DNA of 64,000 nucleotides from an uncultured Acidobacteriota bacterium (GTDB taxonomy: Bacteria > Acidobacteriota > Thermoanaerobaculia > Gp7-AA8), in contig CAWGHO010000002.1 in the NCBI GenBank assembly GCA_963822445.1, positions 224,001-288,000 on the forward strand. Direction: 5' to 3'. The notes beneath the pieces are model-generated. The model searched no databases and was not told the origin of the DNA. It saw only the letters and a program-made list of their open reading frames with translations. A program made the position numbers and the translations under genes. Positions 26,779 to 39,203 of this stretch are shown in pieces; position 1 is the stretch's first letter, and every line of letters begins with the position of its first letter.

Positions 26779-28191
26779 CTAGCGCGTGTACATGTCGATT
26801 ACCCGCTGAATGGCCCGATTGCACACGTCGCAGAACCCGACCTCGTCCCGCGTGAACATGATGCAGTCGACCTCCGGCCGGTACAGACCCGTGTACTCGT
26901 AGCTCGCCCCCTCGAACGCGCCGACATGGCCGAAGTACTTCTGCGAGGCCAGAAACTTCGTCGACCACTCCAGCTCTTTGTGGAAGAACGCGTCCATCTG
27001 CGATTCAGGGACGTTCGCCGCCCGCAGCTTCGCGCGCTCCTTCTGGTACTCGCGCGCGTGCTCGTCGTAGGTCTTCTTGTCCCACGGCGTCGGCAGCGGC
27101 GTGCCGGGTGTGACCATCTCCATCCACTTCGGACGCTCGCCGTTGGCGGTGATGTTCGGCTCCCACGGCTCGGGATGATGGGCGGCGCCGGTCTCGTATG
27201 CGACGGGCGAGGTGTAGTACTCATCGCCGAGGCCGGCGAAGTGGTGGCCGAATTCATGGACGAAGACGTATTCGGCGAATCCCGTGTCGACGGCGGTCGT
27301 GGCCTGGTCGCCGTAGATCCCGCCGCCGCCGTACTGCGCTTCGTTCACGAGGATCTCGATGAAGTCGTAGGGCGCTGAGGCCGCGGCGTTGCGCAGCGCG
27401 CGGTTGTCGAGCGTGAGGATGTACCGCTCGGAATCGAAGATGTTGTACTGCACGCCGGTGACGGTGCGGCGGTTGTCGCCGGTGCGCGGACGATGCACGC
27501 CGCTCTTTCCCACCGCCGGCAACTCGAGGACGCGCACGTTGAAATCCGACTTGCGCGATTTGAACGGCTCGGTCGCGAACAGCTTTCCGGCCAATCGCTC
27601 CACATCCTTCTTCAGCTTCGGCATCTGCACCGGCGAATACCCCTCGGCGATGAGCAGCAGATCCACCTTCTGCGATGCCGGACCGCTTTCGAGATACGAC
27701 CAGACCTTGCCGGCCGGCGCGGCGTCGGCGGGATTCACGAAGCGCGAGGCCGGATCGATGATCGTCGACCACACCTGCTGGAAGGCCTGATTCGTGTCGC
27801 GCTTCTTGAGCACTACCTGCACGGGCTTCTTCGGCCAGGGGAAGCGCAGCGATTCGTGGAACGTCGCGGCGCGCTCTTTCGCTTCGCCCGTGGTCTCGAA
27901 CTCCCCGTACACCGACGCGAAGCCGCGCGAGTAGATGACCTGGTTCGTGTCGCGATCGACGACTTCGAAGTAGTACTTGCCGAGGTTCGAGGTGTCGATG
28001 AGACGGGTGCGGCTGCCGGGCCAGGGGCCGTCGGAGACCACGCTGTCGAGAGCCACGATCTCATCGCCCTTCGGCGTGGAGGTGTGGAAGTAGTCGACGC
28101 GCATGGTCTTGTCGAGGAACTGCTCGTCGAAAGGTGCGGCCGTCGCGGCCAGGGCCAGAAACGTTAGGAGAAGCGTGACGAAAGTGCGCAT
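26779..28191 (-). CDS. M64 family (IgA peptidase-like) metallopeptidase
   Basis: MRVDYFH, AEGYS, YGGGG, VHEFGHHFAGLGDEY, EPWEPN, C-terminal CIM..FCDVC. Confidence 0.9.
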   Translation of the reverse strand: MRTFVTLLLTFLALAATAAPFDEQFLDKTMRVDYFHTSTPKGDEIVALDSVVSDGPWPGSRTRLIDTSNLGKYYFEVVDRDTNQVIYSRGFASVYGEFETTGEAKERAATFHESLRFPWPKKPVQVVLKKRDTNQAFQQVWSTIIDPASRFVNPADAAPAGKVWSYLESGPASQKVDLLLIAEGYSPVQMPKLKKDVERLAGKLFATEPFKSRKSDFNVRVLELPAVGKSGVHRPRTGDNRRTVTGVQYNIFDSERYILTLDNRALRNAAASAPYDFIEILVNEAQYGGGGIYGDQATTAVDTGFAEYVFVHEFGHHFAGLGDEYYTSPVAYETGAAHHPEPWEPNITANGERPKWMEMVTPGTPLPTPWDKKTYDEHAREYQKERAKLRAANVPESQMDAFFHKELEWSTKFLASQKYFGHVGAFEGASYEYTGLYRPEVDCIMFTRDEVGFCDVCNRAIQRVIDMYTR

Positions 28192-28217
28192 GGAGGCGGA
28201 TGTTATCGTGCCTCGAT

Positions 28218-29243
28218 ATGCGTCGTCTCGTGGCGCTGTTCCTCGTCCTCGCGGTTCCGATCTCCGCGCAACTCCGCGAGACGATGACCGTCGCCCGCAT
28301 CCTTCTGGACGTGCGGGTCACCGACATCGACGGCGAAGCGATGATCGGCCTCGAGGCGCAGGACTTCGAAGTGCGCATCGACGGGCAGAAGGCGGAGGTG
28401 CTTTCCGCGACGTGGATCGACGACACAGTCGCCTACTCCGCGGAACCACCGGACAACCCGGCAACCGGACAACCCGAGAACCGCCTCACGACGATCGCCC
28501 CCGCCGGCCGCCTCTTCATCTTCTTCATCCAGACCGATTTCAGCCGCGAGACCGAGCGCGTTCGCGGGCAGATGCACTTCCTGCTGTACGCGGAGAAGAC
28601 GCTGGAGATGCTCGAGCCCGAGGACCGCGTGGCGGTGTTCTCGTTCGACTCGCATCTCAAGTTCCGCCTCGACTTCACCAGCGACAAGGAAAAGATCCTC
28701 GCGGCGATGAAGGAGTCGCTCTTCGTGAACATCCCCGGACCGCTGCCGGTCGTGCACTCGCCGTCGCTCGCATCGCGGCTCGATCGCGACGAGATGAAGC
28801 GCGCCGCGGATTCGGAGACGGCGCTGCTGCTGATCGGCAACGCTTTGCGGCCGATACCGGGCCCGAAGTCGCTGCTGCTCATGGGCTGGGGCCTCGGCGA
28901 ACTGACGGCCAGCGGCGTGCGCATGAAGCCGCGCTACAAGTTCGCGCGCAACGCACTCGAGGCCGCGCGGGTCACGATCTTTGCCCTCGACACGACCAAC
29001 GCGGACTATCACAGCCTCGAGGTAGGACTCGGAAAAGCGGCGGAAGACACGGGCGGCTTCTACGCGAAGACACATCTCTTCGCCGATCAGGCCATCACCC
29101 GATTGCGGCGAACGCTCGCGGGTCACTACGAGCTCGAATTGCGGCGACCCGATTCGCTGAAGACGGGAACGCATCGCGTGGAGGTGCGGGTGAAGATTCG
29201 CGGCGCGCACGTGCTTGCACCGGCCACCTGGATGGATCGTTGA
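28218..29243 (+). CDS. VWA-domain (VWFA-related) secreted protein
   Basis: Signal peptide; LDVRVTD...GLEAQDFEV.IDG; DRVAVFSFD; PGPKSLLL; AEDTGG; YELEL. Confidence 0.8.
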   Translation: MRRLVALFLVLAVPISAQLRETMTVARILLDVRVTDIDGEAMIGLEAQDFEVRIDGQKAEVLSATWIDDTVAYSAEPPDNPATGQPENRLTTIAPAGRLFIFFIQTDFSRETERVRGQMHFLLYAEKTLEMLEPEDRVAVFSFDSHLKFRLDFTSDKEKILAAMKESLFVNIPGPLPVVHSPSLASRLDRDEMKRAADSETALLLIGNALRPIPGPKSLLLMGWGLGELTASGVRMKPRYKFARNALEAARVTIFALDTTNADYHSLEVGLGKAAEDTGGFYAKTHLFADQAITRLRRTLAGHYELELRRPDSLKTGTHRVEVRVKIRGAHVLAPATWMDR

Positions 29244-29271
29244 TTGCACAACTTTCGGTCAGGAGGTCGTG

Positions 29272-29538
29272 ATGGCAAGCAGATACGGGAAGAAGGCCGG
29301 GGAAAAAGTCGAGAAGGCGATGCACGAGCGCAAACGCGGCACGTTGAAGAGCGGGTCGGGTAAGAAGGTGACCTCGAAGAAGCAAGCCATCGCCATCGGT
29401 CTGTCGGAAGCGCGCGAAGCGGGCGGCAAGGTTCCGTCGAAGAAGTCCTCGTCGAAGAAATCGTCCGCGAAAAAGTCGTCTTCGAAGAAGTCTTCCTCGA
29501 AGAAGAGCAGCTCGCGCAAGTCGTCGAAGAAGAAGTAG
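29272..29538 (+). CDS. DUF6496-like small basic protein with KKSSS-repeat tail
   Basis: KVEKAMHERKRGTLKSGSGKKVTSKKQAIAIGLSEAR; AGGAGG RBS. Confidence 0.85.
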   Translation: MASRYGKKAGEKVEKAMHERKRGTLKSGSGKKVTSKKQAIAIGLSEAREAGGKVPSKKSSSKKSSAKKSSSKKSSSKKSSSRKSSKKK

Positions 29539-29542
29539 CGGG

Positions 29543-30490
29543 CTACTCCAGATCGATGCCCCGCCCATGCTCGACGGCGAGCACCGGCGGGTTGCCCTTC
29601 TCCGCCAGGGCCGCGCGCAGATCGTTCACCGGCTCGGCTTCTCCGTCATCGCCGAGCCGGAACGTTCCGTAGTGCATGGCGATGCTCGTACGCGCCCGCA
29701 CCGAGAAATGCGCGTCCACCGCTTCGGCCGGCGAGATGTGCGCGGACTTCATGAACCACCGCGGGAGATACGCGCCGATGGGCAGCAGGGCCACGCGAAT
29801 CTCGCCGAAGCGCTCGCCGATCTCCGCGAAGTGCTTGCCCCATCCCGTGTCCCCCGCGAAATACACGTGACCCGATGGACCGCTGATCACGAATCCACCC
29901 CACAGCGTTGCGTTGCGATCGTGAAGTCCTCGCGCGCAGAAGTGCTGCGCCGGAACCTGCGTGACTTTCACCCGATCGGTGATCGCGGCTTCCTGCCACC
30001 AGTCGAGATCGCGCGCGTTGTCGATCCCGTGACGCGCCATGATCGAGGAGTTGCCGAGCGGTGTGAGGATCCGCGGCGCGCGCAACCGCTTCAGCGTCGG
30101 GAGATCGAGATGGTCGTAGTGGTTGTGGCTGACCAGGACCGCGTCGATGGGCGACAGCTCTTCGAACCGGATCCCCGGCACCCGATGGCGTTTCGGTCCG
30201 GCGAAGGAGACCGGCGAACAGCGCTCGCTCCAGATCGGATCGGTGAGCAGATTCACGCCGTCCATCTGCACGAGCATCGTGGCGTGGTTCACCCAGGTCA
30301 CGCGAACGCGCCCGTCGTCGACCCTGGTCAGCGGCGCCGGCCCCGGCTCGGCGTCGATCCATTTCGGCCACGGCCCAGGCTTCTTGGTCATCTGCCACTT
30401 GAGGAACGACCCCTCGGTCTGCCAGCCGGACTGGTGGTTGTGAAACCGCCTGCCGTCGAAGTGATCCGAGACCGGGCCGCGATAGGGCAT
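29543..30490 (-). CDS. MBL-fold metallo-hydrolase (NAPE-PLD/RomA-like)
   Basis: SHNHYDHLD, PAQHF, FAGDTG, LPIGAY, MHYGTF. Confidence 0.92.
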   Translation of the reverse strand: MPYRGPVSDHFDGRRFHNHQSGWQTEGSFLKWQMTKKPGPWPKWIDAEPGPAPLTRVDDGRVRVTWVNHATMLVQMDGVNLLTDPIWSERCSPVSFAGPKRHRVPGIRFEELSPIDAVLVSHNHYDHLDLPTLKRLRAPRILTPLGNSSIMARHGIDNARDLDWWQEAAITDRVKVTQVPAQHFCARGLHDRNATLWGGFVISGPSGHVYFAGDTGWGKHFAEIGERFGEIRVALLPIGAYLPRWFMKSAHISPAEAVDAHFSVRARTSIAMHYGTFRLGDDGEAEPVNDLRAALAEKGNPPVLAVEHGRGIDLE

Positions 30491-30508
30491 GGGCCGCCGA
30501 TTCTGCCA

Positions 30509-30537
30509 TTGACGCCCGCACCCCGCTTCGCTATGTT
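30509..30537 (+). promoter_or_regulatory. Putative sigma70 promoter of tRNA-Val(CAC)
   Basis: TTGACG-17 bp-TATGTT. Confidence 0.65.
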
Positions 30538-30595
30538 GACCGCCCCTCGGCGGAAATAGAGGCCGAGGACGGCTCGTTGACAGAAGTTCTGATGT

Positions 30596-30671
30596 AGCCG
30601 CTTAGCTCAGTTGGTAGAGCATCACCTTCACACGGTGGGGGTCAACGGTTCGAGTCCGTTAGCGGCTACCA
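30596..30671 (+). tRNA. tRNA-Val (anticodon CAC)
   Basis: Acceptor AGCCGCT/AGCGGCT, D-arm GCTC..GAGC, anticodon loop TTCACAC, TTCGAGT T-loop, CCA end. Confidence 0.97.
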
Positions 30672-30685
30672 AAACGAACATCCCT

Positions 30686-30717
30686 GAACGCCGCCCGCGA
30701 GGGCGGCGTTCGTTTTT
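30686..30717 (+). terminator. Rho-independent terminator after tRNA-Val(CAC)
   Basis: GAACGCCGCCC-GCGA-GGGCGGCGTTC followed by GTTTTT. Confidence 0.8.
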
Positions 30718-30827
30718 CCGAGCATCCTTTTCGTAAAGATGTCGCGGTCCATCCAACCCACATCAACGAATCCGCTACGCGATGTGGAGCGGCACGGTTC
30801 TGATATCTTGACAGCAGGGGGCTACGC

Positions 30828-31976
30828 GTGGCGCCGCGGATCGAAGCGATCATTAATTCCGAGCTTCTGGTGTGGGCGAGGGACTCAGCGAGTCTTTCGG
30901 TGGAGGCCGCCGCCAAGAAGGCGCACGTGAAGCCCGAGTTGCTTGCGGAGTGGGAGAGCGGCGCGGCGCGGCCGACGATCAGTCAACTTCGACTCCTTGC
31001 AGAGGCCTACAAGCGACCGCTCGCCGTTTTCTACCTTCCGAAGCCTCCAAAGTCGTTTGATGCACTGCGCGATTTCCGGAGAATGAGCGGGACCACAGCG
31101 AAAGGTTCACCGGCGCTGGCGTACGAAATTCGGCGAGCGCATGAGCGTCGGGAAATCGCCCTCGACCTCTTCGACGAGTTGGGCGAAAGCGCTTCGGCTG
31201 CCAAACTTGCTGCTCGAATAACTGATGCGCCGGAGAAGGTCGCCACCGAGCTTCGCGCGATGCTAGAAGTAACGCTCGAGCGGCAGAGGCAATGGAACAG
31301 CGAATACACCGCATTCGGGTACTGGCGCGATGCGATCGAGGACAGCGGAATCCTGGTATTTCAAACGTCGGGAGTTCTCGTGAGCGAGGCGCGGGGGTTC
31401 TCCATCTCGGTCCAACCACTGCCCGTCATCGCGATGAACGGCAAGGATTCGTATGCTGGACGCATCTTCACGATGATGCACGAGCTGGCGCATCTTGCTC
31501 TACGCCAAGGCGGCATCTGCGATCTCGACGAGCATGGGTTGGAAGTCTTCTGCAACGCCGTTGCGGGGGCGTTGCTCGTTCCCGGCGAGGCACTCCTTGC
31601 TGATTCAGAGATCAGAAACGCGCAAAGACCCAGTACCTGGTCAGAAGAGACAATCCAGCGGTTGTCAAAACAGTTTCGTGTCAGCCGGGAGGTCATCGTT
31701 CGGCGTCTTCTCACGATTGGAAAGACGACGTCATCGTTCTACGAGCTGAAGAGACGCGAATATGCCGCAGAGCTCGCGAGACGACCACCAACCAAGGGAG
31801 GACCACCACCACCCGCACTAGCGGTAGCACGCGCAGGTAAGTTGTTTACGGGTGTCGTCGTGCGCTCTTACAGTGAAGGTCGCATCACCTCGGCCGACGC
31901 GTCCGATTTCCTCAGCCTGAAACTGCGACACCTGCCTGAAGTGATGAAGGCGCTCCGGGTAGGACTCACTGCTTGA
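30828..31976 (+). CDS. Xre-HTH + ImmA/IrrE (COG2856-type) Zn metallopeptidase, putative antitoxin
   Basis: LVWARDSASLS...WESGAARPTISQL HTH; RIFTMMHELAHL HExxH; EVFCNAVAGALLVP; FRVSREVIVRRL. Confidence 0.9.
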   Translation: MAPRIEAIINSELLVWARDSASLSVEAAAKKAHVKPELLAEWESGAARPTISQLRLLAEAYKRPLAVFYLPKPPKSFDALRDFRRMSGTTAKGSPALAYEIRRAHERREIALDLFDELGESASAAKLAARITDAPEKVATELRAMLEVTLERQRQWNSEYTAFGYWRDAIEDSGILVFQTSGVLVSEARGFSISVQPLPVIAMNGKDSYAGRIFTMMHELAHLALRQGGICDLDEHGLEVFCNAVAGALLVPGEALLADSEIRNAQRPSTWSEETIQRLSKQFRVSREVIVRRLLTIGKTTSSFYELKRREYAAELARRPPTKGGPPPPALAVARAGKLFTGVVVRSYSEGRITSADASDFLSLKLRHLPEVMKALRVGLTA

Positions 31977-32437
31977 AGTACAGCTTGGATACCAGCGGTA
32001 TACTCGACGGCTGGCGGCACTATCCGCCGGATATCTTTCCGCCGGTGTGGCAGCGGTTCGACGAATTGATCACCTCCGGTACCGCCCGAGCAAGCGACGA
32101 AGTATTGAGGGAGTTGAAAAAGAAAGAAGGCGACGAGACGTACGCGTGGTGCGCCGCTCGACCTGCATTGTTTCTGCCGCTCGACGGGAAGATCCAAAAA
32201 GCGGTGGCCGAGATCCTTGCGGCACATCCCAAACTGGTTGAGTCAGGCGGGAAGCGGAGCGCCGCCGACCCATTCGTCATCGCGGTCGCCCGGGTGCACA
32301 AGTGCGCTGTCGTGACTGGCGAAAGTGCATCGGGCAAGATCAACAAACCTCGCATTCCAGACGTATGTGAGGCGCTCGGCATCGAAGTTCTGTCACTCCT
32401 CGGCGTCTTCCGGCGCGAAGGTTGGACGTTCGCGTAA
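31973..32437 (+). CDS. PIN-domain protein (DUF4411-like), putative toxin
   Basis: YSLDTSGIL, EVLREL, ADPFVIAVA, VVTGE, RIPDVCEALGI; 4-nt overlap with the upstream gene. Confidence 0.85.
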   Translation: MKYSLDTSGILDGWRHYPPDIFPPVWQRFDELITSGTARASDEVLRELKKKEGDETYAWCAARPALFLPLDGKIQKAVAEILAAHPKLVESGGKRSAADPFVIAVARVHKCAVVTGESASGKINKPRIPDVCEALGIEVLSLLGVFRREGWTFA

Positions 32438-32481
32438 AAGTCGAGGAGGAGTAGACGACCCGACCGCGCGCTTACTGGTTT

Positions 32482-32565
32482 CTTCACACGGTGGGGTCAA
32501 CGGTTCGAGTCCGTTAGCGGCTACCAAAACGAACATCCCTGAACGCCGCCCGCGAGGGCGGCGTT
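32482..32565 (+). repeat. attR-like duplicated 3' half of tRNA-Val(CAC) plus terminator
   Basis: Begins at the anticodon loop; lacks the tRNA 5' half. Confidence 0.92.
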
Positions 32566-32577
32566 TGTGTTTTCGAT

Positions 32578-35573
<2,996 letters not shown>

Positions 35574-35577
<4 letters not shown>

Positions 35578-36149
35578 GCGCTGCCGCCCAGTCTGTGGAG
35601 GAGCCAGGCCCGCGCGAAGGCCCAGTCACGCTTCGCTGTCCGCGGCGAGCAGCCGAGGAGCGCGGCGACTTCGTCGATGTTCAGGCCGCCGAAGAAACGG
35701 AGCTCGATGACGCGCGAAAGCCGCGGCTCCTCGACGGCGAGCAGGTCCAGCGCGCGGTCGAGATCGATGAGCTCCGCGGAATCCATCGTCGACGTTGCTC
35801 CCTCATGCAGCACATCGACGATCTGCAGCCTGGGCGAGCCGGCACCGCGCTTCTGCGCGAGGTTCGCCCGGGCGTGATCGACGAGGATGCGACGCATGAT
35901 CCTTGACGCAATAGCGAAAAAATGGGCCCGATCGTGCCATGGCACGTCGCCGAGGCCGCGCAGGCGGAGGTAAACCTCGTTGGCGAGCGCGGTCGGCTGC
36001 AGGGTGTGGCCGGGCGGCTCGGACCGGAGATGCTTCGCCGCGATCGCGCGAAGCTCGGTGTAGACCATCGGCAGGAGCCGTTCGAGCGCACCGTCGTCGC
36101 CCTGCTCCCAGGCGCGGAGAACCTCGGTGATGGGAAGCTCCGGAACCAT
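35574..36149 (-). CDS. ECF sigma factor of the kinase-associated type (TIGR02999/ECF43-like)
   Basis: VYTELRAIA, HTLQPTALANEVYLRL, RAHFFAIASRIMRRILVDHAR, ELRFFGGL, RDWAFARAWL; overlaps the kinase start. Confidence 0.92.
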
Positions 36150-36201
36150 CCGGACCTATTTGACGCGATTCCGGATCTAATGCCAATCGGCTTGTTCGGT
36201 G

Positions 36202-36750
36202 CTACTCCGTCGTCGGAATCCCCATCTCGAACTTGAAGTAGTTCCCGCGGTCGTATTTCTTCTTGGTCGTCACCAGTTCGCTGTATTTGTCGCGGTAGTA
36301 CTCAGCGATGGGGATGTCCCGATCGGGAAAGTTGATGAACCCGCCTTCGGTGTAGCGGGCGTTGCGCATCCGATCGCGGAAGGCCGCAACGAACTGCATG
36401 CATGCCGCGCTCACCGTCTCATCCTGAGGCCTGATCCACCACGCCTGGTACTGCAGCAGGAACGGCTTGTCGCGCCACGCGAAGGAGCTCAGCGCATTGC
36501 GGTTCGCCTCGATCTGACCGCCCATGCAACGCGCACATCGCCGCAGCCTCCGTCGCCGAACAACTGCCGCGGCTTCGCGTTCCACAACTCGCTGTAGACC
36601 TTCGAGTTTTTCGCACCCGCGCCGACCCTCGCGATCCGGGTCGCCGCATCGACCTTCACGTGATCGATGTTCGACAGATCGATGACGCATACGCCCGTAC
36701 CGGAGCACATCCCCTCGTGATGATGCCCGCCCGACCGGAGTTCCTTTAGG
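36202..36750 (-). pseudogene. Remnant of an FAD-linked oxidase (FAD_binding_4 + BBE), truncated and internally deleted
   Basis: RSGGHHHEGM...VIDLS...ARVGAGA in one frame is joined out of frame to SSFAWRD...GGFINFPD...YY...KKKYD.GNYF. Confidence 0.78.
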
Positions 36751-36837
36751 TTGACGTTTCCCTATGTCGGGCATTCCGCGAGGGTGGCGGGCACCGCGAC
36801 GGGACGACCGCCGCCCACGACTCGTCCGATGGGACGG

Positions 36838-37392
36838 CTAGCCCCGCAACTTGACCGCCGACACTGCCACCAGCGCCGCGGCGAGCAGGGAGAGCATCCA
36901 CACCGACAACGTCGGAACCGCCGGGGCACTGGCCGGAGGCCCGATCACCGTGAGCGTGGCGGAAGCCGGACCACCGTTGGGAGTTCCGGTCGCCGTGACT
37001 TGCGAGGTGGTGTTGAGATGCACGCCGAGCGCGATGCCCTGAACGAGCACGATGATGGTGCAGGACTGCCCCGCTGCCAGAACACTCGACGTGCTCGAGA
37101 ACGTCTCGGTGCCGGGGCTGATGGTGAACATCCCGCCGCCGGTGGCCGGCGTGCTGCACGTCCCGCCGATCTGCGTAATCAGATTGACGCCCGCCGGCAT
37201 CGTGTCGCTGAACTGAACGTTGGTAATCGGAAAGGCGTTCGGATTCGTGACGGTGATGGTCGCATCCGAATTGTCGTTGAGCATGACGATCGCCGGATCA
37301 AAGCTCTTGGTGATCGTCGGAGCGAGCGCCTGCGCGGATGCGTTCAGGGCCAACAACATCGTGAAGAGCGTCGCAACCAGCAATCGTTTCAT
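36838..37392 (-). CDS. Secreted DUF11-like Ig-domain protein with IPTL-CTERM sorting signal
   Basis: Signal peptide; PTITKSF, TVTNPN, FSDTMPAG, LAAGQSCTI; C-terminal VPTLSVWMLSLLAAALVAVSAVKLRG. Confidence 0.85.
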   Translation of the reverse strand: MKRLLVATLFTMLLALNASAQALAPTITKSFDPAIVMLNDNSDATITVTNPNAFPITNVQFSDTMPAGVNLITQIGGTCSTPATGGGMFTISPGTETFSSTSSVLAAGQSCTIIVLVQGIALGVHLNTTSQVTATGTPNGGPASATLTVIGPPASAPAVPTLSVWMLSLLAAALVAVSAVKLRG

Positions 37393-37514
37393 GTGGAGGC
37401 ACGATATTGATCAAGCCGCCTCCATGTCAAAGTCGCTCCCGTATTCAGTGGGTCAGCTTTCTGGTCGCTGCGCCGGCCGCGGCGCCGGGAATGTCTCCAA
37501 ACGCCCCTGAGTTC

Positions 37515-37544
37515 TTGCAACGCGCTGAGGGCCTGGGCTATCTT
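37515..37544 (+). promoter_or_regulatory. Putative sigma70 promoter of tRNA-Val(GAC)
   Basis: TTGCAA-18 bp-TATCTT. Confidence 0.55.
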
Positions 37545-37562
37545 CCGCCTCCAGCAGCACGC

Positions 37563-37639
<77 letters not shown>

Positions 37640-37652
37640 AATGCCCACAACC

Positions 37653-37680
37653 AACGCCGCCTTCGGGCGGCGTTTTTGTT
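37653..37680 (+). terminator. Rho-independent terminator after tRNA-Val(GAC)
   Basis: AACGCCGCC-TTCG-GGCGGCGTT followed by a T tract. Confidence 0.85.
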
Positions 37681-37727
37681 TGGCGTTTCTGGTCATGGAG
37701 TTGCAATTCATGAGTCAGGAGGTACTC

Positions 37728-38072
37728 ATGGCTGCAAGCAAAAAAAAGAAGAGTGCGACGACGTTGCGGAACGTCGTCGGTGGAGCGGTGGGCAGTGACG
37801 CGTTGCTCGATCTCGTGGAAAAGCTGGGCCTCGTCGACATCGTCGTCGGTCGCCTGAAATCGCGTCTCGAGGAAACGGATGTCGATGAGCTGTTCGACGA
37901 CCTCACCGACTACATGAAGCGCAATCCGGAAGTGCTCGTGGTGTCACTCGGCGCGCTCACCGTCGCGACCGGCCTCGTCGTTTTCCTGAACAGCCGCCGC
38001 GAGTGGGACGGCGCCGTGGAGCGCCGGGGAACGGGCAAGCGAGCTCCCGCGCGCGTCAAGCGCATCGCGTAA
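37728..38072 (+). CDS. Hypothetical protein with one C-terminal TM helix
   Basis: AGGAGG RBS before ATG 37728; VLVVSLGALTVATGLVVFL. Confidence 0.7.
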   Translation: MAASKKKKSATTLRNVVGGAVGSDALLDLVEKLGLVDIVVGRLKSRLEETDVDELFDDLTDYMKRNPEVLVVSLGALTVATGLVVFLNSRREWDGAVERRGTGKRAPARVKRIA

Positions 38073-38075
38073 TCC

Positions 38076-39203
38076 TCAAACGAACTGCGGGACTTCGGCC
38101 GCCGCCGCCGGCGGCTCGAAGTGTTCCTTCGATTCCCGCACGCGCAGCCGCGGGCCTCGCTCGATCACGGCCTGCGACACATCGATCCCCACCGATTTCC
38201 AGCCCGCCAGGACGGCTTCCTGCGGCGCGCTTCCGGCGCCGAAAAGCTCTCCGGCCGCGCGCCAGGTCGCGTCGGCGCAATGCTGGAATCGCGATCGCGG
38301 ACCGAGCTCGCGCGTCAGCGCCCGATACCAGATCCGTCCCGCGGTCTCCCAGGCCTTTCCGCCGAGGAGCGTGGCCACGCGATAGAAAGCATGGTTGGGG
38401 ATTCCGGAGTTGATGTGCACACCACGATCGTCCGCTGATGTCTTCACGTAGTTGCGCATGTGCGCGGGCTGCGGATCGTCGCCGAGAATCGGATCGTCGA
38501 AGGCGGTGCCCGGCGCGCTGAAGGAGCGGATGCCTTCGCCGTTCACGCGATCGGTGAGCAGCTCGCGGCCGACGATCCACTCCGTCGACGTCCCTTCCGC
38601 GTACTGCTTCACCATCAACCCGAACACGTCCGAGTAATGCTCGGCGAGCGCGCCTCCCTGTCCGCTGAAGGCGAAACCGGCCGCGAACTGCGTGACGCCA
38701 TGAGTAAGCTCGTGCGCGATGACGTCGAGCGCCGAGGTGAAGCGGCGAAAGTACTTGCCGTCGCCGTCGCCGTAAATCATCTGCCGGCCGTTCCAGTGCG
38801 CGTTGTTGAAGCCTTCGCCAAAGTGAACGGTCGAGTCGAGGCGCATGCCGCGGTCGTCGATCGAGCTGCGGGCATGCACGCGGCGGAAGTAGTCGTAGGT
38901 GCGCCCCGCTCCTTCGTAAGCCTCATTCACCGCAGCATCCCGCAAAGCCCGCCCACCCTCGGACCGCACGTTCAGGCCCGGCAGATCACGGGTCATGCGC
39001 GCGTCGAACACCGTGCGCTGCTTGCGGCGTGGCGGAAGGATCAACTCACCGGCGACGAGCGCGACCGCGTGGCGTTCCGCGCGGGGCGGCGCGGACATGG
39101 CCATGGTCGCCATCGCCCGAAGGCGATCCTCCCCGTCGCCGCGCGCGGCGATGTTGCGCAGGATGTGAGGCGGCACGATGCTGCAGAGCGCGCGTCGTCG
39201 CAT
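38076..39203 (-). CDS. Protealysin-like M4 metalloprotease
   Basis: Propeptide CSIVPPHIL, NNAHWNG, YGDGDG, AHELTHG, GVHINSGIPN. Confidence 0.92.
   Translation of the reverse strand: MRRRALCSIVPPHILRNIAARGDGEDRLRAMATMAMSAPPRAERHAVALVAGELILPPRRKQRTVFDARMTRDLPGLNVRSEGGRALRDAAVNEAYEGAGRTYDYFRRVHARSSIDDRGMRLDSTVHFGEGFNNAHWNGRQMIYGDGDGKYFRRFTSALDVIAHELTHGVTQFAAGFAFSGQGGALAEHYSDVFGLMVKQYAEGTSTEWIVGRELLTDRVNGEGIRSFSAPGTAFDDPILGDDPQPAHMRNYVKTSADDRGVHINSGIPNHAFYRVATLLGGKAWETAGRIWYRALTRELGPRSRFQHCADATWRAAGELFGAGSAPQEAVLAGWKSVGIDVSQAVIERGPRLRVRESKEHFEPPAAAAEVPQFV

Follow-up and report, generated by a model that had tools for sequence, protein, structure and literature searches.

The stretch of DNA considered here (the window) is 64,000 nucleotides long and comes from an uncultured Acidobacteriota bacterium (assembly GCA_963822445.1, contig CAWGHO010000002.1, positions 224,001 to 288,000). 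Its subject is a small islet at the gene for tRNA-Val(CAC), in which two genes overlapping by 4 nt make up the content of a 1.86-kb insert that lies between the 3' half of the tRNA gene and a second, displaced copy of that half. The first gene (ORF1) encodes a protein with an Xre-type helix-turn-helix (HTH) domain and an M78 peptidase domain, and the second (ORF2) a PIN-like protein of the DUF4411 family. In what follows, G000 denotes the genome that holds the window, an assembly of 3 contigs that is 94.7% complete; other genomes are labelled G0xx, retrieved loci L0xx and contigs C. The islet is laid out as follows, in window coordinates, with att standing for attachment site.

30596-30671 (+): tRNA-Val(CAC), from ARAGORN; Rfam tRNA model 66.5 bits
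30626-30721 (+): tRNA-proximal repeat copy (attL side), comprising anticodon loop, tRNA 3' half and terminator
30722-30773: left spacer, islet-specific; by alignment not common to other module copies
30774-30827 (+): conserved module upstream region, a presumed promoter/operator; homology with L035, L036 and L054 begins here
30828-31976 (+): ORF1, 382 aa, GTG start, Xre HTH and M78 peptidase
31973-32437 (+): ORF2, 154 aa, TTG start, DUF4411 PIN-like
32438-32481: right spacer, islet-specific by alignment, from the ORF2 stop to the repeat; no arm-type similarity
32482-32576 (+): displaced repeat copy (attR side), comprising tRNA 3' half and terminator

A two-gene insert between copies of a tRNA 3' half

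The tRNA-Val(CAC) gene is the sole gene of its kind among the 54 tRNA genes of G000, and the left boundary of the repeat falls at its anticodon loop, the last base of the anticodon stem being included. The segment 32482-32496 equals 30626-30640 at 15/15 positions, and 32493-32576 matches 30638-30721 over 84 nt at 96%, with a one-base offset. When expressed as a single gapped match, tRNA positions 31-115 align with 32482-32565 at 98.8% identity over 85 columns (E 2e-39). The original prediction had described an 85-bp segment repeated as 84 bp, with a run of five G residues shortened to four, and both sequence and alignment bear this out: the G5 run of the tRNA (GGTGGGGGTC) stands as G4 in the displaced copy (GGTGGGGTC). 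Similarity between the copies extends past the T-tract to ~32576, with three mismatches; a 12-pair terminator hairpin is found in each of them (30685-30712 and 32540-32567), and the displaced copy abuts the stop codon of a convergent kinase gene. The direct repeat is far above chance and, in a genome of 3 contigs, presents no assembly hazard. It was also considered whether the terminator after tRNA(CAC) is a copy of that after tRNA(GAC), the next tRNA-Val gene along the window, and this was rejected as merely a generic hairpin likeness.

Between the repeats, spacers of 52 nt on the left and 44 nt on the right flank the gene pair. The GC content at third codon positions is 0.66 in ORF1 and 0.71 in ORF2, as compared with 0.83-0.89 in neighbouring genes, in keeping with the A/T-richer codon ends described in the original prediction, which also gave the 4-nt overlap of the two genes. 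The GC content of the islet, 0.593, lies in the lowest 2.1% of 6813 same-size genome windows (mean 0.644, standard deviation 0.021). The 1.67-kb module formed by the two genes and their upstream region is foreign, as is seen from its low GC content, from its not having been found in the 34 other genus genomes and from its 88%-identical copies in diverged relatives. Ahead of ORF1 the motif GCTACGCG occurs twice, at 30774-30781 and 30821-30828, 47 nt apart, the second site overlapping the GTG by one base. Both sites recur in the copies of 88% identity, where the first reads GCTACCCG, and since the pair is kept there it may represent putative operator sites for the HTH domain.

The islet had been predicted to be without an integrase, and indeed ten tyrosine-recombinase queries gave no tblastn match in window 28000-38500. 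Amongst the features by which tRNA islands of the tyrosine-integrase type are recognised, the anticodon-loop repeat, atypical composition and patchy distribution are all present here; an internal integrase is not.

The HTH-peptidase and DUF4411 gene pair

The identities proposed for the two proteins were confirmed against Pfam. In ORF1, HTH_3 (2.5e-09) spans residues 17-67 and Peptidase_M78 (1.6e-12) residues 173-294, each scoring over its Pfam cut-off, and the part that follows the M78 (ImmA/IrrE, COG2856) domain is helical. ORF2 is a full-length DUF4411 protein (1.3e-33, profile positions 1-159 of 159) that also matches the general PIN model weakly. The HExxH motif of ORF1 is formed by H218-E219-H222, and in a 46-sequence alignment H218 and H222 are invariant and E219 is conserved in at least 90%; D6, E47, D99 and E117 of ORF2 are invariant in a 43-sequence alignment. 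Because these catalytic residues are conserved, both predicted enzymes look active. ORF1 is the presumed antitoxin and autorepressor, and ORF2 the presumed toxin.

Relatives of ORF1 are numerous (1108 at E 0.001 among 8000 candidates scored), and their pairing with DUF4411 genes appears to be old and tight. Thirty loci with an ORF1 relative were drawn from genome and metagenome collections, 5 of which end at contig edges; a DUF4411 gene lies directly after the ORF1 relative in 23 of the 25 with downstream room, down to 26% identity, and there is none behind it in L052 and L056. The gene pair type is already published and structurally solved. DUF4411.1 has been described as a PIN-like domain whose gene lies downstream of a fused HTH-DUF955 (COG2856, ImmA) gene, and a system with three components, namely a regulator, a protease and a nuclease, was proposed (Matelska et al. 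2017, PMC5499597). The islet pair agrees with this type in domain order, gene order, the HExxH motif and the four acidic residues, with no structural difference; what is particular is the genomic setting, in which the pair is the sole cargo of an att-flanked tRNA islet.

The Protein Data Bank entry 9vzy contains a 393-aa HTH protein, which ORF1 matches over residues 9-375 (phmmer 1e-60), and a DUF4411 protein, which ORF2 matches (3e-44), with three chains of the former and six of the latter; no paper on this entry turned up in the literature searched. Prediction of an ORF1-ORF2 complex gave a score of 0.84, the best of 3 controls reaching 0.00. This mark was met by 116/157 solved complexes and 2/215 mismatched pairs, figures that serve as a rough guide only since own alignments were used. 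The prediction runs have at least 83% of contacts in common, with a predicted local distance difference test value of at least 86 for the partner. Because a like complex has already been solved, the pass may reflect that likeness. Taken together, the likeness to the 9vzy chains and the model suggest that ORF1 and ORF2 form a complex. The predicted interface comprises residues 2-10, 51-74, 106-117 and 351-367 of ORF1, of which 51-74 contains the invariant R63, P64, A66, F68, L70 and P74, and residues 7-12, 43-47, 99-101 and 116-118 of ORF2, around D6, E43/E47, D99 and E117. Its position at the acidic residues fits an antitoxin that covers the nuclease active site.

The original prediction had likened the pair to RosmerTA, an anti-phage system of a Zn-peptidase antitoxin and a toxin whose function is unknown (Millman et al. 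2022, 10.1101/2022.05.11.491447). An ImmA-type antitoxin node has been grouped with RosmerTA, an association with PIN-like domains being noted, and one RosmerTA toxin that was tested is membrane-depolarising (Ernits et al. 2023, PMC10440598). As these sources describe it, the RosmerTA antitoxin has a Zn-peptidase domain, often an N-terminal HTH and swappable toxins. When ORF1 was compared with the PADLOC models, which are supplied without a cut-off for RmrA, 15/18 matches were to RmrA models, the best at 3.9e-18 and 63.5 bits over residues 9-373. ORF2 falls in no recognised RmrT family of PADLOC, and the tested RosmerTA toxins in the available accounts are of other kinds. The pair is filed under the published HTH-COG2856 and DUF4411 type and not under RosmerTA proper. 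No phage test for the DUF4411 branch was found in the literature searched, and a role of the module in defence is suggested by analogy only. GndRX, as presented in PMC12457610, is a RES-Xre system and so irrelevant to the pair. Phage protein families are among the matches to the two proteins (phrog_2439, 8.8e-53, and phrog_11126, 2.1e-18); in curated phage genomes just 2/50,697 records match ORF1 at E 1e-10, and a phage origin was not traced.

Copies of the module are scattered. Among the matches listed for 40 relatives, beyond which 58 further matches lie outside the set, the module is not covered, bar one 188-nt stretch at 69% in G032, and a protein search of the 34 other genus genomes gave only distant DUF4411 genes (31-37% identity) in 3 of them. 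Metagenome contigs carry copies at 88% DNA identity (91-96% at the protein level) over 30774-32437, the homology starting 54 nt before the ORF1 start and stopping at the ORF2 stop. The copy in L035 lies between selA and an acyltransferase gene, those in L036 and L038 have as neighbours a restriction enzyme of type ISP and a transposase of IS1595, and a 79%-identical copy in L037 adjoins an unknown gene. At L035, L036/L038 and L037 no tRNA-Val, tRNA fragment or convincing flanking repeat was found, the candidate repeats at L035, L036 and L037 being just 14-24 nt matches that are likely due to chance. The flanks of L035 match G000 at 74-78%, and in G000 the site is empty, the two flank matches lying 40 nt apart; the contrast between an 88%-identical module and 74-78%-identical flanks, with the empty site, means that the module is younger than the lineage split and has moved between lineages. 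In these sequence relationships the pair behaves as a self-contained, horizontally moving module.

Two further observations concern these copies. The DUF4411 gene at L036:7156-7620 has an in-frame stop (75 + 77 aa), a possible toxin inactivation, and the otherwise equal L038 copy is intact. At more distant loci a 23-nt exact pair in L042 and a 28-nt pair in L040 bracket the module; these may be genome-wide repeat elements.

tRNA-Val(CAC) as a recurrent insertion site

It had been proposed that the tRNA gene serves as an integration site, and the genus supports this: displaced fragments running from tRNA positions 22-34 to the 3' end are found in 9/35 genus genomes (G000, G002, G014, G021, G024, G042, G043, G049 and G050, of which G002 is unpublished). 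The crossover point is constant within a few bases across the tRNA-Val elements of the genus, and that of the islet lies within 2-3 nt of it. The cargo at the site differs from genome to genome.

G024 island 1: tyrosine integrase (L016:7524-8702) and HerA/mad8-like ATPase
G024 unit 2: gene pair, families unknown
G043 (L069) island: ThiF, DUF2188, M78, HTH, kinase and tetratricopeptide repeat (TPR) genes, with HTH and M78 split
G049 (L070) island: TPR protein and SBP-NACHT protein
G042 (L071) island: one 1911-aa STAND protein (nSTAND5/TCAD9/cold-shock/OST-HTH)
G014 contig C761 island: RelA/SpoT-TGS-NACHT protein
G014 contig C109 island: single Ser/Thr kinase
G021 island: single Ser/Thr kinase

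When the ten tyrosine recombinases were compared by tblastn with 14 retrieved regions, only G024 matched. In most units a conserved arm of ~150 nt adjoins the core and forms the end of the unit; within the arm the GTGTTCGC motif occurs doubled, and there are palindromes resembling GGATATCC. A DNA search found the arm in 6/35 genomes, one of them the unpublished G002, always at the tRNA-Val(CAC) site, and not in G000. In the elements of G024 and G014 a terminator stands directly behind the tRNA half of the left end, and the repeat of G042 extends over 130 nt at 78%, 86 nt of it beyond the tRNA; a terminator-inclusive repeat such as that of the window is hence expected where two elements that have the same left end stand in tandem. 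A precedent for decay is offered by G024, in which a 7.3-kb island with an integrase has behind it, in tandem, a 2-kb unit of two genes with the same arm and no integrase.

Several side observations were made at this site. Conflict-type genes are found in the att-flanked, integrase-less units of L069 (G043), L070 (G049), L071 (G042) and L073 (G014). G024 unit 2 (L016, G024:C21, 2110-4190) has an arm that is 82-94% identical, an att core down to 12 nt and overlapping genes for 431 and 153 aa, the small protein being membrane-like (weak S_4TM match, E 0.009); beyond the unit, at L016 1695-1823, lies a 43-codon stretch like a recombinase C-terminus. The tRNA-Val(CAC) of G048 is split, with positions 1-44 at C14:468464-468507 and 45-76 at C2:1-32, which may reflect either an interrupted tRNA or a break in the assembly where the att site is repeated. 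To the left of the tRNA in the window, beside a conserved metallo-β-lactamase-fold gene, there is a lysine/serine-rich low-complexity ORF at 29215-29538 (+), and in the corresponding place G024 (L016:12773-13373) and G049 (L070:6697-6992) have 10-20 tandem 21-nt units.

To the right of the islet, the interval that separates tRNA-Val(CAC) from tRNA-Val(GAC) in the window holds three further features.

32578-36149 (-): Ser/Thr kinase-TPR gene (999 aa) and extracytoplasmic function (ECF) sigma factor gene, GC 0.70
37484-37545 (+): putative decayed right-arm remnant, 18 nt upstream of tRNA-Val(GAC), from nhmmer profile and local alignment
37563-37639 (+): tRNA-Val(GAC)

In G012 and G007 tRNA-Val(GAC) follows tRNA-Val(CAC) after 6-7 nt, and G043 and G050 have a displaced CAC fragment ~18 nt before tRNA-Val(GAC); two adjacent genes are likely the ancestral state. 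Within the window the arm profile matches once, at 37485-37544 (E 0.0077 for the window). A gapped local alignment of this segment to the G043 and G050 arms scores 33-34, as against a shuffle mean of 15 and maximum of 27 (0/500 reach the score). In the alignment, a gap of ~60 nt follows the arm remnant exactly at the position of the CAC fragment in G043 and G050. With moderate confidence, 32578-37545 (kinase, ECF sigma factor, BBE remnant and DUF7933 gene) is read as an older insertion whose att core has been deleted and whose right end is worn. The islet, with the same moderate confidence, is the later arrival, and 32482-32576 the old junction, formed of the tRNA half and the older element's terminator, displaced downstream. 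This suggests that the 6.9-kb gap between the tRNA genes consists wholly of accreted insertions. Within the older insertion, the 190-aa ORF at 36202-36774 (-) matches only a 45-residue C-terminal BBE domain, lies in a stretch of lower GC content (0.61-0.63) and looks like a truncated gene. Matches of the neighbouring kinases to PD-T4-6 were set aside as evidence of defence, being due to the general kinase domain.

The islet has counterparts elsewhere in G000. At G000:C3:348960-351413 (L087:14961-17414) tRNA-Glu(CTC) has a 42-nt exact 3'-half copy 2.3 kb on, with no integrase and two genes that likewise overlap by 4 nt, for a DUF3500-Calx-beta protein (482 aa) and an unknown protein (212 aa); the next tRNA-Glu(CTC) fragment, 13.9 kb on, encloses REC-TIR, REC-Schlafen and histidine-kinase genes. 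Three displaced 3' halves lie 30, 62 and 72 kb downstream of tRNA-Asp(GTC) (G000:C1:495403-567934) and one at 22.6 kb from tRNA-Glu(TTC) (G000:C3:620543-643225), and these look like tandem island arrays. Given that integrase-less, att-flanked units are common in G000 and the genus, the islet is not exceptional. The commonness of such islands, like the composite nature of the CAC-GAC interval, the published pairing and the solved complex, goes beyond the original prediction.

Origin and fate of the islet

The islet is probably a non-autonomous, att-flanked insert in tRNA-Val(CAC), stranded as a remnant, which carries nothing but a single module of a type II-like toxin-antitoxin or abortive-infection kind. 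An element would have entered the anticodon loop by site-specific recombination, bringing its own tRNA 3' half and terminator, so that the previous copy of the half was pushed 1.86 kb downstream; it would have entered on top of the older kinase and ECF sigma factor insertion between the once-adjacent tRNA-Val(CAC) and tRNA-Val(GAC). Integrase, arm sites and other cargo would then have been lost, or were never present, and the addictive toxin-antitoxin pair would have survived in a unit now unable to move alone. As a rule, tyrosine integrases of this sort depend on arm sites, and the islet is considered stranded because it is without both these and a helper. The loss of a toxin-antitoxin pair is penalised (addiction), and for this reason such a pair would be the likeliest cargo to outlast decay. 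In the cell, ORF1 would bind the PIN-like ORF2 and shield its acidic active site, and its Xre HTH domain would repress the operon through the conserved upstream region of 55 nt. In response to a stress or phage signal the M78 domain would inactivate the antitoxin, as ImmA acts on ImmR and IrrE on DdrO, whereupon the released nuclease would arrest growth.

The islet bears comparison with cis-mobilizable elements (CIMEs), which are defined as having kept their att sites and lost their integration and transfer genes, and whose tandem accretion is documented for integrative and conjugative elements (ICEs) (ICEberg 2.0, PMC6323972). As in a CIME, there are attL/attR-like repeats, no integration or transfer genes and a tandem arrangement with another insertion. 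In contrast, CIMEs as defined in that source derive functional att sites from a known ICE or integrative and mobilizable element, whereas the islet has no known parent and no arm, and its size, 1.86 kb with a single operon, is small for a CIME. The tRNA-Val site is also like the defence hot spots of Hochhauser et al. (2023, PMC10121019), in that a fixed site holds varied conflict-type cargo across genomes, mostly with no recognisable mobile-element genes; it differs from the hot spots described there in that a mechanism is visible (tRNA-half repeats and arm) and in that the host is of an uncultured, high-GC type and not E. coli or Pseudomonas. Of the two origins put forward in the original prediction, the selected remnant of a larger island fits better than mobilisation in trans, for which G000 offers no close integrase and the islet no ~150-nt arm.

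A number of points weigh against this remnant origin or its details. Removal of arm and cargo right up to the core, with 44 nt left on the right, would be needed, and a single deletion is not likely. The ends of the islet compare with the arms of the genus elements no better than shuffles do (105-267/300 reach the observed score), and as they are unlike the arms, descent from that element family is not established. The arm remnant before tRNA-Val(GAC) is weak (E 0.72 genome-wide), gives no score against the G042 and G024 arms, and by ungapped short blastn does not rise over shuffles (22.3 bits against a maximum of 24.3). The acceptor stem of the window tRNA has C3:G70, and aligned relatives have G3:C70, the closest relative's tRNA-Val(CAC) being 97% identical to that of the window. 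The displaced copy likewise carries G70, and both repeat copies are hence of own-lineage type; G70 and the same terminator in both copies fit a same-lineage donor, a shared tandem left end or gene conversion alike. The comparison with relatives suggested in the original prediction yielded different cargo at the site, but not the exact empty site, which was not found in 40 relatives, these being too diverged and rearranged and none conspecific; the right-flank kinase sits elsewhere in G003 and G020. In the one metagenome run listed (0.05 of words) the reads cover only the relatives' conserved flank and tRNA pieces, with no coverage of the islet and no junctions, and no RNA run was among those listed. 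With regard to the toxin-antitoxin assignment, the RmrA matches of ORF1 are moderate and partial, ORF2 has no PADLOC family at E 0.01, and the NCBIfam antitoxin model scores 23 bits against a cut-off of 335.

It is unlikely that the unit is still a live passenger, excised, carried off and re-inserted when an integrase encoded elsewhere, or on a neighbouring incoming element, recombines the 85-nt att copies at either end of the 1.86-kb unit. The att-like copies are intact and 96-99% identical, the crossover agrees with that of the genus tRNA-Val elements, and among the units examined in G000, G014 (3), G021, G024 (2), G042, G043 and G049 an integrase is present only in G024 island 1; tandem arrays exist in G021, G024 and G014 contig C761, and tandem accretion with CIMEs is documented for ICEs (PMC6323972). 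However, at E 1e-20 nothing in G000 matches the integrase of the G024 island, the best recombinase match in G000 having 33% identity over the catalytic domain and no tRNA beside it; the islet does not have the conserved arm that other units keep beside the core, no further copy of the att sequence exists anywhere in G000, and where the module has close copies elsewhere, they do not lie at tRNA-Val. A related and rather unlikely proposal extends to the whole site: tRNA-Val(CAC) would be an integron-like docking site, at which integrase-less arm cassettes are stacked, swapped and stripped by a rare integrase acting in trans, the islet being a minimal cassette still mobilisable through its 85-nt repeats. 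A cassette of this kind has the conserved arm of ~150 nt and a 45-nt tRNA half at its end, and the cargo includes STAND and NACHT NTPases, RelA/SpoT-NACHT, ThiF with HTH and M78, Ser/Thr kinases and toxin-antitoxin pairs.

The repeats might also have arisen with no site-specific recombinase, through a RecA-dependent single crossover (Campbell-type) of a small circle or fragment bearing ~90 bp of an own-lineage tRNA 3' half and terminator, or through a repair duplication in place, the boundary at the anticodon loop then being coincidental. A repeat as long as 85-96 nt, reaching 40-50 nt beyond the tRNA into the terminator, and the lineage-specific G70 in both copies are what own-lineage DNA would be expected to leave; this is nevertheless improbable, given that the boundary at the anticodon loop is the same in eight other genus genomes, among which arm-bearing elements and one integrase occur, that the G042 repeat also overruns the tRNA end, and that the left ends of genus elements bear their own terminator, so that tandem elements explain the long repeat. 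It is very improbable that the pair is a domesticated regulator, in which a stress switch resembling ImmA/ImmR or IrrE/DdrO would serve the host together with a PIN partner that processes RNA: M78 peptidases paired with Xre proteins do regulate stress responses and elements in other bacteria (PMC10440598, PMC12828697), and the operon is intact with its catalytic residues conserved, but its distribution is patchy, close copies being found just in this genome among the 35 of the genus, its composition is foreign, the 88%-identical copies lie in different genomic contexts, the toxin gene of L036 has an in-frame stop and phage protein families match both proteins. The preferred reading remains a stranded, CIME-like insert with a toxin-antitoxin module as its only cargo.

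The case in itself is of little weight, being a widespread module type in another decayed island. It nonetheless offers a natural example of a toxin-antitoxin pair outliving its carrier element, and the module's occurrence at no fewer than three unrelated places in related genomes is relevant to the question of how such pairs are spread when mobility genes are not in evidence. Of greater interest as a lead are the cassettes found at tRNA-Val(CAC) across the genus, which bear arms and for the most part have no integrase; if these cassettes move, the site would be a simple and tractable model for the filling of defence hot spots.

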